DNA of 64,000 bases from an uncultured Eubacteriales bacterium (GCA_964440805.1 CAYTTR010000007.1:9795-73794); one strand, 5' to 3'; counted from the stretch's first letter, positions 2,777 to 62,034 are shown. Notes: generated from the sequence alone by a model not told the origin. Made by a program: numbers and translations.

Positions 2777-4552
2777 TCAGGTTTCAGAGCTCCAGTCACG
2801 GATTTCATAGTATTTCCGGAGCATATGATTGAATTGAGTTTCTTTATCAATAGCCCGATTTTCTCCTGAAATCATTATTTTTTCAGTGAAAAACCGGTCA
2901 GGTAAAGTATCCTCTCTGGTAGAAATCCCTGCCTTGATATTGAAGAAGCGCTCCTTTTCAATTATTCCTTTGGCTTTCTTTTTAAGCTCATGTGGACTTA
3001 GGTCGATTCCGGTGAATCCGGAGTAAATCCGGGAAAGTTCATTTTCGCTAAACGAAAAAAAGGCAAAACGGCAAATTCCCAGCATATCTGCTACACAGCC
3101 TGAATCCTGCTCATCCACTACGTGGTCGGCTACCGTATCCACCAGGAACCTGTCCACTTCCCTTGCTCCTCCAAAGAATCCAAGGGAAATCATATATCCT
3201 CCCTTGAGGTGGCAGCCCCCTCTGGTTGAAGTGGCGTAGCCAAGGGCCTGCATTAAGGTTGAGCGGGGATCATAAGCGGGAAGCTCTAAGCCTTTGACTA
3301 CCATGGCCAGCTCATCAGCACCGAATTTTCGCCCCAGCCTCAGAGCTCCGTCGGCCAGAAAATCGCCTAATCCTTCTCTCAAGCAGGTCAGGCGGGCAAG
3401 CTTTGGCAAATTTTGCAGCTTTCCAAAGGAAAGCCGAAGGCCGTTTGTTTTATTTTGTGTAATTATACCCTTATCGAAAAGTTCCATGGCCAAACCCAGG
3501 GTGTTGCCGAAGGAAATAGTGTCCAGTCCGTAATCATTGCAAACATAGTTGGCCAAGGCTATTTCTTGCAAGTTGTAGTTATCAAGATTGGCCCCCATCA
3601 TGGCCAGCGTTTCAAATTCAGGTCCTTCTCCTTTTTTTTCTCCTGTCCTGGTAATTCTGGTACAGCGAATACGGCAGTTGAAGCAGCCTCCGGGAACAGC
3701 TCCAAGGTTTTTTCTTAAAGATTCTCCCGATATTTTTTCGATGTCCTCTTGTTTGTGCCGGACATCCTGAAAATTGCGGTGAACCAGCATATCGTGCTGG
3801 TAAACAAGCTTGAGCAAGCCGGCAGTTCCCAGCAGAGGGAAAGCTTTGGCTGTAACCGGCAGGGAACGAAGAAGTTTGTTTGCTTGAAAGAGTCCGGTTT
3901 TATATGTTTTTTGATTAACCGGCCGGAATGTTTTAGTTCCTTCAACTACCACTGCTTTTAAATTTTTGGAGCCCATAACTGCTCCGCCGCCTCCCCGGCC
4001 GCAGGTGCGGCTGTAATCATTCATGATCGATGAAATTAAGGCTTTTTTCTCTCCGGCCGGTCCAATTCCCAGAACCCGGCCCCGGGGATATTTTTTCAAG
4101 AGCTTTCCGGTTATCTCAGAAACAGTGTAACCCCATAGCTCCGGGCATTCAATGATATTTGTTTCCTTCTCGGAAATATAAAGATAGACGGGAACAGCCG
4201 CTTTCCCTTTGACAATAAGCATATCGTATCCGGTCCGTTTAAAAGTGTTTCCCCAAAAACCTCCTGAGTTTGAACTGCATATGGTTCCGCTTAGGGGGGA
4301 TTTAAAAGTAACGGAGAATCGGCCTGATGTCGGAGCTGCACTTCCTACCAGTCCCCCCGGAGCGAATACCAGCAAGGATTCTTCTCCCAGTGGGGTGGTA
4401 GAAGGAGATAGATTATGGTTGAGGCAGATTACTCCCAACCCTCTTCCTCCGAGCCCATCGGTTATGAGATTTTGAGACAGGGGATGGCGATTAACTCTGC
4501 CTGAGGATAAATCAACTTCAAGAAAACAATTGTTGTACCCATTAACCGCCAT
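2777..4552 (-). CDS. aor: Aldehyde:ferredoxin oxidoreductase, tungsten-containing AOR family (AOR-1)
   Basis: 591 aa. The N-terminal domain (MAVNGYNNCFLEVDLSSGRV...) and the rest of the sequence resemble the AOR family, including a conserved Cys-rich region and EFETLAMMGANL / GLD motifs. Confidence 0.85.
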   Translation of the reverse strand: MAVNGYNNCFLEVDLSSGRVNRHPLSQNLITDGLGGRGLGVICLNHNLSPSTTPLGEESLLVFAPGGLVGSAAPTSGRFSVTFKSPLSGTICSSNSGGFWGNTFKRTGYDMLIVKGKAAVPVYLYISEKETNIIECPELWGYTVSEITGKLLKKYPRGRVLGIGPAGEKKALISSIMNDYSRTCGRGGGGAVMGSKNLKAVVVEGTKTFRPVNQKTYKTGLFQANKLLRSLPVTAKAFPLLGTAGLLKLVYQHDMLVHRNFQDVRHKQEDIEKISGESLRKNLGAVPGGCFNCRIRCTRITRTGEKKGEGPEFETLAMMGANLDNYNLQEIALANYVCNDYGLDTISFGNTLGLAMELFDKGIITQNKTNGLRLSFGKLQNLPKLARLTCLREGLGDFLADGALRLGRKFGADELAMVVKGLELPAYDPRSTLMQALGYATSTRGGCHLKGGYMISLGFFGGAREVDRFLVDTVADHVVDEQDSGCVADMLGICRFAFFSFSENELSRIYSGFTGIDLSPHELKKKAKGIIEKERFFNIKAGISTREDTLPDRFFTEKIMISGENRAIDKETQFNHMLRKYYEIRDWSSET

Positions 4553-5026: not shown

Positions 5027-5358
5027 AGATAAAATCCCCTCTGAAAGTCTATTCAGTTCATTAAGTCTATTCAGATTATTCAATTGATTCATTAAAATAA
5101 AAATAAAGGGAGATGGGCTGGAAGAGTTTACTGCGTTCATAGCGTTTATCTGGTTTGTTTAGTTTATTAAGTCCATCTGGTTTGTTTGGTATAACTGATT
5201 TGAATAAGGCGAGGCGAGCGAGATGGATGAGACTAAATGAACAAGATAAACGAGATAAACATGATAGAAGGGCGAGACGAGCGAAATGAGTAAAAAGAAT
5301 TTTTAGAAAGAAAAGATGAGCATTTTCATTGTTGGTGGGTGACAAAGTTACCAGGATA

Positions 5359-5521
5359 TTAACCTGAACTATTCATAAAAAAGGCCGATTTTAAATAAGA
5401 TTCAATGGAAGAATCAAATGAACTTAATTTCTTTACGTACGCCATGATAAAACCTCTTAACTCATAGATAGTATTTGTGATATAAAAAGTATCGGCCTTT
5501 TTTATGAATAATCCAGGTTAA
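5359..5521. mobile_element. MITE-like non-autonomous element, copy a (short form, about 155 bp) with TTAA flanks
   Basis: Terminal inverted repeat TTAACCTGAACTATTCATAAAAAAGGCCGAT (5359-5389) pairs with ATCGGCCTTTTTTATGAATAATCCAGGTTAA (5491-5521). The same termini recur at 23105, 43065 and 60843. The right TTAA also supplies the stop codon of the adjacent minus-strand kinase gene. Confidence 0.7.
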
Positions 5522-6942
5522 GTGTTGAGAGAAGGGATATTTATATTAAAGGCTGTTCCTTGACGGCGGTCCACCTTCAGACTTCCTTTCAATTGTTTGA
5601 CCAAGTCATTAACTATTTGGAATCCCAGTGATTGTGGTTGGTTAAGGTCTACTTTTTTTGGGAGGCCGATTCCTGAATCTTTGACCTGCAATTGATAGTT
5701 CCCTGCTTTATCCTGAAAAAATTTTATCTTAATTTCTCCCTCTTTCTTTCCAGGGAAAGCATACTTAAGGGCATTGGAAACAAGCTCACTCACCAGAAGC
5801 CCCAATGGAATGGCCCGGCTGAGGTCAAGCTCTATATCTTTTGTCTCGATGGCCATTTGAACCCGTTTCTGGTCGACCGGGTAGGCTTCCAAAAGGCGTC
5901 TGGTCAGGTTTCTTAGGTAAGAGCAAAAATTAACCGTACTGCAGGGAGGCAGGTGGTCTAATTCCTGATGTGAGCTGAGGGTTTTGATAAGCATTTCTCT
6001 TTGTTCTTGAGGATTTAACGATTGTTCTTTTTCCTCCAGGCATTGGGACTGGAGCCGGAGAAGCTTGTAAACGAGGTTCAGGTTCTGGTTAACAGTGTAT
6101 TTGTATTCTTCCATGTCTTTGTGTTTCTCCTTGAGAGCTTCTTCCAGTAAGGCCATTGACATTTTGCGGTCACTTATATCCTTAGCCAAAATTATGAATG
6201 AAAATTTTTCCTTTGTCTCCCAGGGAGTCAAGCATATCTCAATCGGAATTTCACTCCGGTCTTTTTTGCGGCCGATTGCTTCCACCCATTTGCCGGCGAT
6301 TTTTGAGCGGGTAAAAAGAAGGAGACGTTGAATTTCGGCCAGAAACCTTGGGTCTGGATGCTCGGCCAGCAGAATAGAGAACGGTCTTCCCGTTACTTCA
6401 TGCCGGGAATAGCCGAAAAGATTCTCGGCTCCTTGGTTCCAAAAGTAAATAACTCCGCTTCTTCTGGCCAGAATAACTGCTTCATTCATGTTTTCAGCCA
6501 GCTCCTGCCAGGTCCGGCTCGATTCTTTCATCAAATCATAGACTTCCTTGTTGTAAAGAGCGATCTGAAGGGTTGCTTTTATTTCATTGTCTTGGAAAGG
6601 TTTGATAATGTAACCGAAAGGTTCCACTTTCTTGGCTCTTTTTATCAAAGCATCATCACCATAGGCGGTAAGGAAAATGACCGGAATATCCATTTCATTT
6701 TTCAGAATGGAAGCAGCTTCAATTCCATCCAGTTCACCGGGCATTACAATATCCATAATAACCAAGTCAGGCTTAAAAAGACGGGCTTTAGCCACTGCTT
6801 CTTCTCCGGATGAAGCCCTTCCCACAACTTTATATCCCATGTGAGTTAGCCTGACTTCTAAGTGAGTGGTGATGGCAGCTTCATCATCCACTACCAGGAT
6901 TTTTTTCATCCTGAACCTCCTCGCTTGCAATTTTAAATTCAA
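5518..6942 (-). CDS. Hybrid response-regulator receiver + PAS + HisKA_2-type histidine kinase (likely true start at MKKILVVDDE, coordinate 6909)
   Basis: Receiver motifs (ILVVDDE, KPDLVIMD, FLTAYGDD...KPF), a PAS region (AVILARRSGVIYFWNQGAENLFGY) and a C-terminal HATPase_c region (ELVSNALKYAF, DSGIGLP). It overlaps the next kinase gene by 26-59 nt. Confidence 0.75.
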   Translation of the reverse strand: MNLKLQARRFRMKKILVVDDEAAITTHLEVRLTHMGYKVVGRASSGEEAVAKARLFKPDLVIMDIVMPGELDGIEAASILKNEMDIPVIFLTAYGDDALIKRAKKVEPFGYIIKPFQDNEIKATLQIALYNKEVYDLMKESSRTWQELAENMNEAVILARRSGVIYFWNQGAENLFGYSRHEVTGRPFSILLAEHPDPRFLAEIQRLLLFTRSKIAGKWVEAIGRKKDRSEIPIEICLTPWETKEKFSFIILAKDISDRKMSMALLEEALKEKHKDMEEYKYTVNQNLNLVYKLLRLQSQCLEEKEQSLNPQEQREMLIKTLSSHQELDHLPPCSTVNFCSYLRNLTRRLLEAYPVDQKRVQMAIETKDIELDLSRAIPLGLLVSELVSNALKYAFPGKKEGEIKIKFFQDKAGNYQLQVKDSGIGLPKKVDLNQPQSLGFQIVNDLVKQLKGSLKVDRRQGTAFNINIPSLNT

Positions 6943-8092: not shown

Positions 8093-8560
8093 TTGTTAGT
8101 CTCCCTGCTAACCCTTAATTTCCCCGCTTATAAAGTATAGTCATGTTTATTACTGTGTCAACACTCCTTCTATCTGAGGGGCAATTTTTTCTATTTTTTT
8201 TCTAAAAAATTATCTGTCAGATAAATAAATAATGAATAATTACATTTCCAGGGGGGATTTTTTTAAAATTTTTTTAATAAATTGACAAAAAAAACTTGAC
8301 TTCCTATATTTTATAGGGTTATAAAAAATTGGAACTATGGATAATAAATTATCTGGGGAAATAATTTTAAGTATTTAATGTACTTTTTCGGCTGAAATTG
8401 AAGGAAAGGAGGTAGCCTCCTTCGTGAGAGCCGGAAGAAATTTTAGTCAATCGAAGCCTGAAGATTTATTACCTCCTCTATACCCATCCTTAAAACAACC
8501 GCCATCCTGCCTGGATCAGGATCATATTTTCCATTCTTTAAAGATTACAAGTTTCAAAGC

Positions 8561-8653
8561 TAATTATCCATGGCGGCCTTGCCGCCCGCAAAGGATGAAA
8601 ACGTTCATTTGTCATTTCTGCGGATGCCGGTTGCTTTTCTCGCTTGTCTCGCA
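8561..8653. repeat. REP-B short intergenic repeat, copy 1 (about 90 bp)
   Basis: TAATTATCCATGGCGGCCTTGCCGCCCGCAAAGGATGAAAACGTTCATTTGTCATTTCTGCGGATGCCGGTTGCTTTTCTCGCTTGTCTCGCA is about 80% identical to 18972-19064 and partly to 42955-43034. Confidence 0.6.
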
Positions 8654-8751
8654 TTATTTAAATTTAAATAACGAATTTTCTCATCTGAATGGACGGAATA
8701 GGCTTTTTTATTTTAAAATTAATAAAAATAATTTTTAAAGAAGGAGGGAAT

Positions 8752-18839: not shown

Positions 18840-18971
18840 ACATGGTGACTTGAAATATGCGGATAATTAATTTTGAAAAAAGAGTAAAAATCCTGTTTAG
18901 TTTTTGTTAGAATACCTTCTTATCTGTTGCCACTTAGTGATGGATAAAAGGATAAATGTCATTCATTAAGC

Positions 18972-19064
18972 TAATTACCCATGGCGGACTTGCCACACGC
19001 GACGGATGAAAATGATTATTTTTAATTTCTGCGAATGCCGGTTGCTTTTTTTGCTCGTCTCGCC
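18972..19064. repeat. REP-B short intergenic repeat, copy 2, followed by REP-C (GAATAGACT-type) repeats to about 19140
   Basis: TAATTACCCATGGCGGACTTGCCACACGCGACGGATGAAAATGATT...TTCTGCGAATGCCGGTTGCTTTTTTTGCTCGTCTCGCC aligns with 8561-8653. Downstream, CCGAATAGACTGAACAGACGGAATAGACTTAATAGAC is the reverse complement of repeats at 5050-5080. Confidence 0.6.
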
Positions 19065-19230
19065 CTATCTAAACTTAAAGCACATTTTGACTCAACCGAA
19101 TAGACTGAACAGACGGAATAGACTTAATAGACATTTAAGCTAATTTTTATGGACAGTATTTCCTCTTAATAGCAATGAAAATGCTCACTTTCAATCTAAA
19201 TAAACCGAATAAACTTATTATAAATATTTC

Positions 19231-23104: not shown

Positions 23105-23472
23105 TTAGCCTGGACTATTCATAAAAAAGGCCGATACCTTTTATACAACAAATACTATGAATGACTTAAAAGATTTTCTCTTGGCGTCCGTAAAAAAGTG
23201 AGTTTAGTAAATTCTGCTATTAAATTTTATCTAAAAGCGGCCTGTTTTACCATTCAGGTGAACAGATTTGACGACAATTTTCTAATCAGATTGTCACGGC
23301 GATCGAAGCGAAGCCATCTCAACATAGTTTTCCCCTTAAAATCGCTTCATTCGCTTTACTCACTCGCGACAAAGTCTGCTTCGTTACAGGGCACTTGCGG
23401 TGGAGAGACCACAGCTGCGTGTCCTGTGCCTCGCATCTAAGACAACCTCGGCCGGTGAATAATAGAGGTTAG
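23105..23472. mobile_element. MITE-like element, copy b (long, degenerate, about 365 bp) with TTAG flanks on both sides
   Basis: Left end TTAGCCTGGACTATTCATAAAAAAGGCCGATACC and right end CGGTGAATAATAGAGGTTAG are divergent versions of the family TIRs. The interior shares AAATACTATGAATGACTTAA and the 55-bp hairpin core CTGCTTCGTTACAGGGCACTTGCGGTGGAGAGACCACAGCTGCGTGTCCTGTGCCTCGCA with copy c. Lies immediately upstream of csoR. Confidence 0.6.
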
Positions 23473-42552: not shown

Positions 42553-42954
42553 GTAGGGGTCGATATAGTTGAAGAAAAAAAGAACAGCAGGTTTGCCCTT
42601 CGCTTTACTTCGGCGCTTTTTCGCCATTCTCTCACCGCTCTTCTCGGCGGCTGCGTAACTCCGCATAATTGATTCTTAAAAATCTATTTTATTGTTTTAA
42701 TCCTTATCTTAATCGATATGCCTGCGGCGTGCTCAATACATACTCGCCGTCCAACAAAGTCGGATTCCCTCGAATAGCGGCTCGAGAAGGCTAGCGCCTC
42801 AATGTCGCTCCGGGCAAACCTGTTGTTCTTTAAGTATTATGATTTTATCCTTATTAATTAACAATGGAGGAAAGCTTATTACAATTAATCATGGTTAGAT
42901 TTTAAATGACAACATGATAAAAGCTACGGTTAGATTTTTAAATGACTTGACAGG

Positions 42955-43034
42955 TGGAGGGCTTTTCATCCACGATGAATGAAAATGATCATGTTTAATT
43001 TTTTCGGTTGCCAATTACTTTTCTCGATCGTCTT
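42955..43034. repeat. REP-B repeat, copy 3 (partial), immediately upstream of MITE copy c
   Basis: CACGATGAATGAAAATGATCATGTTTAATTTTTTCGGTTGCCAATTACTTTTCTCGATCGTC aligns with the 3' half of REP-B copies at 8600-8653 and 19010-19064. Confidence 0.5.
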
Positions 43035-43064
43035 AATTATCTTCTTTTAATTACTTAACCTGAA

Positions 43065-43324
43065 CTATTCATAAAAAAGGCCGATACTTTTTATATCACA
43101 AATAATATGAATAAGTTAATAGAATTTATTATGGCGTACGTAAATAAAGTATGTTTATAAAACTCTGTCATAGGATTTTATCTTAAATCGGCCTTTTTTA
43201 CCCTATGGGCGAGCCGATCTCGGCGCATCTGCTTCGTTACAGGACACTTGCGGTGGAGAACCACAGCTGCGTGTCCTGTGCCTCGCAGCTGCACCAACCT
43301 CGACTCGTGAATAATCCAGGTTAA
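43065..43324. mobile_element. MITE-like element, copy c (best-preserved long form, 260 bp) with TTAA flanks
   Basis: Starts TTAACCTGAACTATTCATAAAAAAGGCCGATAC and ends CTCGTGAATAATCCAGGTTAA. It contains the 55-bp core CTGCTTCGTTACAGGACACTTGCGGTGGAGAACCACAGCTGCGTGTCCTGTGCCTCGCA, which can fold as a 9-bp stem ACAGGACAC/GTGTCCTGT. Confidence 0.7.
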
Positions 43325-43377
43325 TAAACTAAACAGACCAAATAGACTTTTTTTGAAAAATTTAAGGCAACCATTTT

Positions 43378-60842: not shown

Positions 60843-61063
60843 TTAACCTGGATTATTAACGAGTTGAGGTGGCTGCAGATGTGGCAAGATCGGCTCGTCC
60901 AAAGGGTAAAAAAGGCCGTTTTTTTAATAAAAATTGATGACAGAGTTTAAGAAACTTGCTTTCTCTTTGTACGGCTTGAGAAGTTCTCTTAAGTCATTCA
61001 TAGTCTTTGTTATCTTTTGTTATATTATATGTATCGGCCTTTTTTATAAATAGTTCAGGTTAA
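60843..61063. mobile_element. MITE-like element, copy d (inverted orientation, 221 bp, lacks the 55-bp hairpin core) with TTAA flanks
   Basis: Starts TTAACCTGGATTATTAACGAGTTGAGGTGGCTGCAGATG (reverse complement of copy c right end) and ends GTATCGGCCTTTTTTATAAATAGTTCAGGTTAA (reverse complement of copy c left end). Interior GATCGGCTCGTCCAAAGGGTAAAAAAGGCCG is the reverse complement of the CGGCCTTTTTTACCCTATGGGCGAGCCGATC in copy c. Ends 6 nt before the sppA stop. Confidence 0.7.
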
Positions 61064-61068
61064 ATTAC

Positions 61069-62034
61069 TCAATACTTAGGCAGCCAGAGGTAGTAGAATC
61101 CGGCTTTAAAGCTGGAGAGGAAATCATCCAGTCCGCTTCTTGGAGGGAAGGGATTGGGCTCCAGAGCCGAGGCATAAATATCGGTTTTTTTCTTAGGATA
61201 GTAAGTATAAGAAACTACATCAGCCTCTTTCAGGGAGACAAGAGAAAGGATTTTTTCTAAAGCATCAGGAAAATATCCAATTTGATCAATTAGTCCATGT
61301 TCTAAAGCCTGGTGCGCGGTTAGAATTCTGCCGTCAGCTATTTTTCTTAATTTCTCTTCTGAAATCTTTCTTTGACGGCCTTTCAGAACAATTTCCAGGA
61401 ACTTTTCATACATTTCGTTAATAATATTCTGAAATACTGCTTCTTCTTCAGAAGTGAGTTCTCTGAAAGGACTGCCGGCATCTTTCATCCGGCCGGATTT
61501 AATCACTTTAACTTCTACTCCCACTTTGGCGAGAAGCTCTTCAGTGCTGGGAAAAATGGAAATAACACCGATGCTTCCGGTAATAGTTGAAGGATGGGAG
61601 ATTAAATAATCGCAGGCTGAGGCTATATAATAGGCGCCTGAGGCAGCTGTCCCCATGGTTAGACCTACTACCGGAAACCCTGTTTTTTCTTTGAAGAGAA
61701 GAATTTCATGATGGATGATATCGGAGGCAGTGACTTCTCCGCCCGGCGAGTCGAGACGGAGAATAATACCTCTTATTTTTTCATCCCGGGCTGCCTTTTC
61801 TAATCTTGTGTAAATCTGGGAGGCCAGACCAGCCTCTCTTTTCAGAAGTCCAGGCTCAATTTCTAAGCCTATGATTCCAGTAACATCGAGGAGAAGGATT
61901 TTATCTCTGGCTGGGCTCTGGATAAGAACAACCTCGCTTAGTTCATCTTTTCCCAGAAGATCGAAATGAAAGTGAGGAAAACATGAAGATAAAAATATAG
62001 AAATAATTGCCAGAAAACCAATGTATTTTTTCAT
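61069..62034 (-). CDS. sppA: Signal peptide peptidase SppA (S49 family, 36K type)
   Basis: N-terminal TM, then ...IRGIILRLDSPGGEVTASD... and ...GLTMGTAASGAYYIASACDYLISHPSTITGSIGVI... (catalytic Ser/Lys region of S49). Confidence 0.85.
   Translation of the reverse strand: MKKYIGFLAIISIFLSSCFPHFHFDLLGKDELSEVVLIQSPARDKILLLDVTGIIGLEIEPGLLKREAGLASQIYTRLEKAARDEKIRGIILRLDSPGGEVTASDIIHHEILLFKEKTGFPVVGLTMGTAASGAYYIASACDYLISHPSTITGSIGVISIFPSTEELLAKVGVEVKVIKSGRMKDAGSPFRELTSEEEAVFQNIINEMYEKFLEIVLKGRQRKISEEKLRKIADGRILTAHQALEHGLIDQIGYFPDALEKILSLVSLKEADVVSYTYYPKKKTDIYASALEPNPFPPRSGLDDFLSSFKAGFYYLWLPKY

Follow-up and report, generated by a model that had tools for sequence, protein, structure and literature searches.

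MITEs are common in bacteria, and the discovery of a further family is unsurprising in kind. Correia elements (CREE) of Neisseria, RUP and ERIC resemble the elements described here in their size (~100–300 bp), their strongly palindromic sequence, their intergenic location, often at gene 3' ends, and their occurrence in many copies. Many bacterial MITEs, including Correia and RUP, are of the IS630/Tc1-mariner type; Correia elements duplicate TA and carry 26-bp terminal inverted repeats (TIR) that are unrelated in sequence to those reported below, and we know of no transposase identified in the host for Correia and similar bacterial MITEs. Promoter, terminator and RNase III roles have been shown experimentally for Correia elements, whereas the elements presented here are known from sequence alone. 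A 4-bp target-site duplication (TSD) combined with CC-initiated ends points to another group, the IS1380 family, whose ends are 'CC' with direct repeats of 4–5 bp. Among eukaryotes, piggyBac, with termini of the form CCC...GGG, and its MITE derivatives share with the elements described here a 4-bp TSD, a favoured TTAA target, 5'-CC termini and short TIRs. IS1380-like elements represent the prokaryotic counterpart of piggyBac (PMC5718144), and IS1380 serves as its outgroup in phylogenies (PMC10813416).

Here we analysed a stretch of 64,000 nucleotides (hereafter the window) from an uncultured Eubacteriales bacterium (GCA_964440805.1 CAYTTR010000007.1:9795-73794), in which one repeat family occurs in four copies. 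These four repeats form a genuine MITE family with IS1380-type termini, and we consider it highly probable that an IS1380-family transposase, acting in trans, has been responsible for their mobility. The copies, and the parts of copy c on which the analysis was centred, are listed below, T1 and T2 being the two types of element end.

5359..5521, minus strand: MITE copy a, short T1/T1 form of 155 bp (5363-5517), with a TTAA TSD at 5359-5362 and 5518-5521
23105..23472, plus strand: MITE copy b, T1/T2, 360 bp (23109-23468), with a TTAG TSD at 23105-23108 and 23469-23472
43055..43324, plus strand: MITE copy c (the flagged copy), T1/T2, 262 bp (43059-43320), with a TTAA TSD at 43055-43058 and 43321-43324
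43059..43085, plus strand: T1 terminus of copy c, CCTGAACTATTCAT, an IS1380-type terminal repeat
43211..43306, plus strand: long G+C-rich imperfect hairpin in the T2 half of copy c, with its tip at ~43234-43290
43307..43320, minus strand: T2 terminus of copy c, the minus strand reading CCTGGATTATTCAC
60843..61063, minus strand: MITE copy d, inverted T1/T2, 213 bp (60847-61059), with a TTAA TSD at 60843-60846 and 61060-61063

The preliminary description of this DNA had recognised four copies with the same termini, and all four are indeed present. A profile made from full-length family members (nhmmer) detected exactly these copies within the window, with E-values from 1e-36 to 1e-86, and no others, while the 27-nt T1 terminus occurred five times in the window with at most three mismatches, against no occurrence in 100 shuffles. 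The interiors align to one another in both orientations, as had been claimed, and the T1 half of copy c can be aligned with copy a in reverse complement. Family members are non-coding and range in size from 155 to 360 bp. The element proper opens with 5'-CCTGRAYTATTCA, the terminal repeat being written 5'-CCTGRAYTATTCA(Y), and its ends are of two types, T1 (CCTGRAYTATTCATAAAAAAGGCCGAT) and T2 (CCTGGATTATTCACGAGTCGAGG). Copy a has T1 at both ends and a TIR of ~27 bp (31 nt with the TTAA, 94% complementary); copies b, c and d have unlike T1/T2 ends and a true TIR of 13–15 bp, so that the ~27-bp TIR initially ascribed to the whole family holds for copy a only. The boundaries of copy c also needed partial revision: its end at 43324 stands, but its start lies at 43055 with the TSD, or 43059 for the element itself, and not at 43065, 10 nt away. 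The flanks read TTAA/TTAA for copies a, c and d and TTAG/TTAG for copy b, exactly as initially reported. Copy b, whose TTAG duplication is non-palindromic, has a degenerate T2 terminus and an extra internal segment of 98 nt (23277-23374) that is absent from every other family member examined.

All copies lie next to or between genes. Copy a directly follows an RR-PAS-HATPase kinase gene (5518-6942, minus strand), whose TAA stop (complement of 5518-5520) is located within the right TTAA of the copy. Since this stop falls in the right TSD copy, the TTAA present before insertion already held it, and the element did not create the kinase stop, contrary to what had been proposed; the HATPase domain of the kinase reaches residue 470 of 474. 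Copy b is bordered by a Fis-type HTH gene and by a gene for a copper-type P-type ATPase, while copies c and d each separate convergent genes, encoding PBP1 and an aromatic ammonia-lyase around copy c, and an M14 peptidase and an S49 (SppA-like) peptidase around copy d. The right TTAA of copy d (61060-61063) ends 5 nt, and not 6 nt as previously counted, before the stop of the S49 peptidase gene (61069-61071). The ammonia-lyase beside copy c has a counterpart of 100% identity among NCBI proteins, encoded by an 'Acidobacteriota bacterium' MAG, and its close homologues are labelled Aminicenantes.

The family extends well beyond the window. Scanning a single genome of each GTDB species for the exact pattern recovered 19 loci in MAGs labelled Candidatus Aminicenantes/Aminicenantales, 'Bacterium GSL_GB14_3', 'uncultured Eubacteriales binchicken_co360_50' and, unclassified, 'MAG: bacterium' (isolate b3.sp2_bin.56), and a scan of JGI metagenomes added four more, for a total of 23 further loci outside the window (loci and contigs are designated below by L numbers). 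At least five MAGs of Acidobacteriota/Aminicenantes type carry the family, at positions unrelated to one another. Carriers include the assemblies of the window source (SRR7048220 and SRR15699983), JAGXKI01 (GSL_GB14_3) and CAYZDV01. None of the 23 outside loci has flanking DNA in common with the window, which excludes segmental duplication as the source of the copies.

Alignment of the copies revealed direct 4-bp duplications at their borders. Among the 13 complete elements (both ends present), nine have identical 4-bp flanks and four lack matching flanks. Five of the nine identical pairs are non-palindromic direct repeats, namely TTAG (window copy b), CCAG (L005), TGAA (L007), CTAA (L008) and CTAT (L014), and none is an inverted match. 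These non-palindromic direct repeats, together with the lack of any inverted pair, place the 4 bp outside the TIR and identify them as a TSD, in line with the preliminary description. The duplicated sequence is also strongly biased: YTAR, with a background frequency of 0.8%, was found in 20 of 37 flanks (binomial p ~1e-32), and over positions -4 to -1 the 37 flanks have Y in 33, T in 30, A in 31 and R in 33 cases, respectively. The insertion target is YTAR, with TTAA its most frequent form (9/37 flanks) and TTAG, CTAA and CTAG also occurring.

This target has a bearing on the IS630/Tc1-like enzyme that had been envisaged as one of the possible mobilising activities. An IS630/Tc1-mariner-type MITE would duplicate TA only, the outer T and the inner A/G then belonging to the flank and the TIR, and such a reading agrees with the central TA of most flanks. 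However, the direct repeats comprise the whole of the 4-bp flank, also where TA is lacking (TGAA/TGAA in L007, CCAG/CCAG in L005), and the termini have no CAG-type start of the kind found at IS630/Tc1 ends. Contradicted by these 4-bp non-TA duplications, this reading is scarcely credible and the least probable of those weighed here. IS200/IS605-derived palindromic elements (PATE/REP), which have neither TIR nor TSD and insert beside a fixed tetra- or pentanucleotide, were likewise considered and rejected, the present elements having TIRs and variable duplicated flanks.

The locus of copy c provided a filled site and its empty counterpart. The neighbouring ammonia-lyase has a homologue of 91% amino acid identity (P0122) on contigs L038–L040, which belong to a relative, derive from three independent Logan assemblies and are collinear with the window on both sides of copy c, at 80–85% nucleotide identity. 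At the site of copy c, the relative reads GGTTATTAA directly joined to GCGACTAAAAG in all three assemblies, with a single TTAA, a sequence beginning GCGAC after the junction and no element. The window at the same site reads GTTTATTAA, followed by the 262-bp element, a second TTAA and GTAATTAAAAG, i.e. TTAA-element-TTAA. A search for empty sites of copies c and d by exact protein look-up returned only the same strain with the same insertions, the insertion of copy d being also found in two Logan assemblies. A further filled and empty pair was observed within the family itself. The member located at 7510-7962 of L007 (TSD TGAA) contains a nested, related element of 187 bp between duplicated TTAA, where its sister copies in L016, L004 and L018 have a single TTAA. 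The termini of this nested element (CCTGGATTATTCAT...ATGAATAATGCAGG) are related to those of its host copy and its hairpin interior differs, indicating that several MITE subfamilies have these ends in common. The preliminary description had conceded that a simple segmental duplication would be the better explanation if the termini were confined to the four loci, with no TSD pattern beyond chance and no empty and filled sites; for the loci, the TSD and the empty sites alike, the results favoured transposition.

Truncated solo ends are numerous and tiny derivatives occur (73 bp in L005, 53 bp in L020), as expected of decaying transposons. With copies that are 70–88% alike, the family looks old in the window and may be inactive there. 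In MAG GSL_GB14_3, three identical T1 halves were found at different loci, and their sequence identity suggests a more recent activity in that genome.

Several side observations concern the termini. Palindromes of 26 bp, made of two termini abutted end to end with nothing between them (CCTGGAYTATTCAYRAATARTCCAGG), were found at 2658-2683 of L001, 4733-4758 of L011 and 7715-7740 of L007, and may represent either minimal derivatives or the footprints of ends that were joined. At 3558-3900 of L021, the gene for a bacterial large SRP RNA (Rfam RF01854, 179.5 bits, 3580-3847, minus strand) is immediately adjacent to a T1 terminus, and beyond the gene comes another, partial T1 (CTATTCATAAAAAAATGCCGATAC); when read on the strand of the SRP RNA, A6GGCC of T1 becomes GGCC-T6 directly past the RNA 3' end. 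In the sister MAGs represented by L011 (3810-3885) and L001, a degenerate member with a T1 end and then a different interior is located ~60 nt from a sequence that looks tRNA-like by eye.

Other repeats are present in the window. A second family, with a core of ~80–145 nt (TGGCGGCCTTGCCRCCCGC...GATGAAAATGATCATTTTTAATTTCTGCG...CTCGCTCGTCTCGC), occurs at 8557-8701, 18968-19112, 42929-43035 and, on the minus strand, 5269-5345, two of its copies abutting MITE copies a and c. It has no obvious TIR or TSD and no Rfam match. Its copy beside copy c (~107 bp) is missing at the orthologous locus of L038, where ACG and ATTAT are contiguous, and this second family also behaves as an inserted element. Runs of 8–9-nt motifs (GAATAGAC / GAACAGAC / AAACAGACC) lie beside it at 5144-5195, 19084-19128 and 43321-43347, and the flanks of copies a and c match each other through these motifs in inverted orientation. 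Within the ORF at 450-1415, a direct repeat of 26 nt (GCAATTTTATTTCCGTCCGGCGACCA) occurs at 724-749, 1000-1025 and 1141-1166; two of its copies, spaced by 141 nt, are identical and the remaining one is at 77%, repeated modules in the protein being the probable reason.

The MITE itself has a composite architecture, with a T1 half of ~145 nt and a T2 side of ~110 nt. In copy c, the T1 terminus is followed by AAAAAAGGCCGAT, which pairs over a long range with ATCGGCCTTTTTT at 43187-43199, and this pairing closes the T1 half. A small ACCC-N3-GGG hairpin comes next, followed by the G+C-rich imperfect hairpin, with the T2 terminus at its end. Among family members, this hairpin has an optional or variable, replaceable tip (43234-43290 in the window): a GGACAC...GTGTCC version is found in window copies b and c (Wb and Wc), L007 and L008, an unrelated perfect hairpin of 45 nt occupies the same position in L013, L014 and L016, and the module is missing from window copy d, between direct repeats CATCTGC. 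In L022 (7829-8059), the tip arms differ in sequence yet stay complementary.

Such structures raise the question of a host function. The copies might represent a non-mobile structured RNA or regulatory repeat of the host (a terminator or small-RNA family) spread by segmental duplication or recombination, as could be argued from the strong folding of copy c relative to shuffles (z = -7.1 and -9.1 on its two strands), from the intergenic position of the copies at gene 3' ends and from the hairpin of L022 that keeps its pairing despite a different sequence. However, any element built of nested inverted repeats can be expected to fold well, as a trivial consequence of its architecture, so that strong folding alone is no evidence of RNA function. 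Rfam gave no relevant match, at the gathering threshold across the whole window or in E-value mode on copy c, and a scan around copies a and c detected no terminators and no intrinsic terminator motif, while promoter-like matches around the same two copies were not convincing. Moreover, the TSDs, the precise empty site, the nested insertion, the solo ends and the short derivatives are hallmarks of transposons, and we regard a host RNA family as extremely improbable. More tentatively, and as a secondary role of transposon-derived DNA, the conserved hairpins inside the elements may have been recruited to form RNA 3'-end structures of the convergent genes on either side.

Regarding coding potential, open frames occur in several copies, that of L016 being open across the whole element, with first 25 codons that look protein-like. 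Variability is flat across codon positions (0.28/0.24/0.29), ORF frames are inconsistent between copies, and a chimeric query of all element ORFs had no match among 5.8 billion proteins. A conserved peptide of the T1 half (MNDLREFLKAYVKK...), a candidate transposase N-terminus, was rejected owing to this flat variability, the differing frames and the lack of protein relatives. The elements are non-coding and have no real ORF, which bears out the earlier statement that no copy encodes a transposase.

The termini provide the link to a known family of transposases, that of IS1380, whose members include ISEcp1, IS1247, IS1678, IS1380A and uncharacterised relatives. They match the ends of IS1380-family insertion sequences in register over 13–20 nt, with up to 20 of 20 terminal bases identical. 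The IS1380 element annotated on plasmid pLAC2 of Ligilactobacillus acidipiscis has CCTGAATTATTCATACTTTTC at both ends, identical to T1 at 14–15 of 16 positions, and the left end of L043 (CCTGAATTATTCATAAAAAATCGATGATAC) agrees with T1 of L021/L022 at 20/20 and with copy c at 19/20. T2 resembles a Bradyrhizobium IS1380-family element, which ends in CCCGCCTTATTCGCGAGAG and CCCGATCTATTCACGAGAG and is flanked by a CTAG/CTAG duplication, the 16 terminal bases of T2 in copy c having 12 in common with CCCGATCTATTCACGAGAG. Enterococcus IS1678 (IS1380-like in PLSDB) ends in CCTGAATAATTCATA, and ISEcp1 in CCTAGATTCTACGT and CCTAAATTCCACGT, with 9–10 of 16 bases shared in CCTAGATTCTACGT. Seven environmental IS1380 relatives were also compared, and the six with recognisable termini share these ends; among these relatives of the Ligilactobacillus transposase, L034–L036 and L042 end in CCTGAATTATTCAC/T (L034, L036 and L042), CCTAGATTATTCA or CCCGAATTATTCA. 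The assignment of these sequences was assessed with the NCBIfam model NF033539 ('IS1380 family transposase', cut-off 180 bits), which the five transposases tested (L029, L033, L034, L042 and L043) pass with 346–412 bits. Like the MITE, members of the family start with 5'-CC, in the form of CCTGAATTATTCAT (Ligilactobacillus, L036, L043), CCTGAATAATTCAT (IS1678) or CCCGATCTATTCACGAG (Bradyrhizobium), and have a short TSD (4–5 bp). They also have long non-coding ends, comparable to the T1 and T2 halves, with 110–207 nt at each end of the elements examined; a T1 half joined to a T2 half is what would be expected to remain of such an element after deletion of its transposase gene.

Differences from the IS1380 family nevertheless exist. 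Its autonomous members are ~1.6–1.7 kb long and encode a transposase, whereas the present elements measure 155–360 bp without one and have interiors that are not homologous to the IS examined. Their TSD is strictly 4 bp with a YTAR target, while four of the relatives make 5-bp AT-rich duplications (ATATA for IS1678, TTTGA for an IS1247-like element, TATAT for L034 and TCAAA for L042), in keeping with the 5-bp direct repeat of IS1247 (PMC3281130, Table 2). Among the autonomous elements examined, a 4-bp duplication of YTAR type (CTAG) was found in Bradyrhizobium only, and the flanks of the Ligilactobacillus copy do not match. The TSD is not uniform among the IS1380-family elements nearest to the MITE in their termini (L029 773-2412, L034, L042, L030). 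Hosts differ as well, Acidobacteriota/Aminicenantes for the MITE against Bacillota or Pseudomonadota for the IS, the closest relatives by terminus being those of Bacillota. The transposase of L043, the closest of all by terminus, clusters with Bacillota sequences, P0120, the nearest of the environmental IS1380 relatives, belongs to a Bacillota clade, and local alignment of L043 with the MITE is confined to the terminal 20 nt.

Two other groups of transposases deserve consideration in view of the 4-bp duplication. The IS5 group (IS5 family) produces a 4-bp TSD of motif (C/T)TA(A/G) (PMC5009759), and IS5 and IS5-derived small elements have the target and the duplication length seen here (PMC5009759), in favour of an IS5-group enzyme as a candidate for the mobilisation of the MITE. 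IS5-type termini (GG/GA...) are nonetheless unrelated in sequence (GGAAGGTGCG...): the IS5-like element checked begins with GGAAGGTGCGAACAAG (end GGAAGGTGCGAAC), as against the CCTGRAYTATTCA start that the present elements have in register with IS1380 ends, and no IS5 transposase was seen near any copy. We hold an IS5 origin to be quite improbable. Mobilisation by an IS701-family or other transposase generating 4-bp duplications appears very improbable; members of IS701 have target duplications of exactly 4 bp (PMC2266710), but their end consensus, ---YACT-Y--YR (PMC2266710), is out of register with CCTGGACTATTCAT when compared by hand (GGAC against YACT at positions 4–7), and the match with IS1380 is far more specific.

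The preferred reading remains an IS1380-family enzyme, and the 'piggyBac-like' activity of the preliminary description proves right insofar as the termini are IS1380-family ends and IS1380 is related to piggyBac. In contrast to the strict TTAA target of piggyBac, the target of the MITE is looser (YTAR, with TTAA in 9/37 flanks); its termini read CCT... and its host is prokaryotic. The 'IS630/Tc1-like' alternative offered alongside is at odds with a 4-bp TSD that includes TGAA and CCAG and is not TA.

A parental element was sought along several lines. The window, loci L001–L023 and the IS1380 relatives examined contained no cognate autonomous element in which the subterminal sequence of T1/T2 could be recognised, and no locus had a pair of TIRs 1–4 kb apart enclosing a transposase; the search for a transposase gene bounded by the same TIRs, as suggested in the preliminary description, was thus negative in the window and the fetched loci. 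Searches of the window and loci with the ISEcp1 and Ligilactobacillus transposases (tblastn) were negative, neither end had any match in viral contigs, and plasmids gave no match.

From these comparisons, we infer that the elements arose by internal deletion of an IS1380-type parent and are mobilised in trans. The enzyme would be a DDE transposase of the IS1380 family whose gene lies elsewhere in the genome or was once present; it would bind the 13–20-bp termini, excise or copy the element and insert it at YTAR (mostly TTAA) with a 4-bp staggered cut, whose repair would generate the 4-bp TSD. The element body would correspond to the two non-coding ends of the parent IS (T1 ~145 nt, T2 ~110 nt) left by the loss of the transposase gene, in agreement with untranslated ends of 150–200 nt in the IS1380 elements examined, and would later have been remodelled by internal deletions and small palindromic additions. 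If the elements excise as precisely as piggyBac does, the empty site of the relative could itself be an excision product.

At the scale of genomes, the family fragments short-read assemblies of uncultured Aminicenantes-type bacteria. Contigs of MAGs and Logan assemblies often end inside a copy (L004, L010, L016, L018, L019, L024–L026), and same-strain contigs from two Logan assemblies are interrupted within copies c and d. The family also provides a marker for strain-level insertion polymorphism.

In the searchable literature, we came across no account of MITEs derived from IS1380, which does not prove their absence. The combination of CC termini, a 4-bp TSD and a TTAA-centred target links IS1380 to piggyBac in target-site behaviour, beyond the sequence of their transposases. 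More tentatively, and with some doubt, the elements may mark an undescribed IS1380 subgroup in Acidobacteriota/Aminicenantes, characterised by a 4-bp stagger at YTAR/TTAA and a piggyBac-like target geometry; if so, this subgroup would offer a prokaryotic model for the origin of the TTAA specificity of piggyBac.
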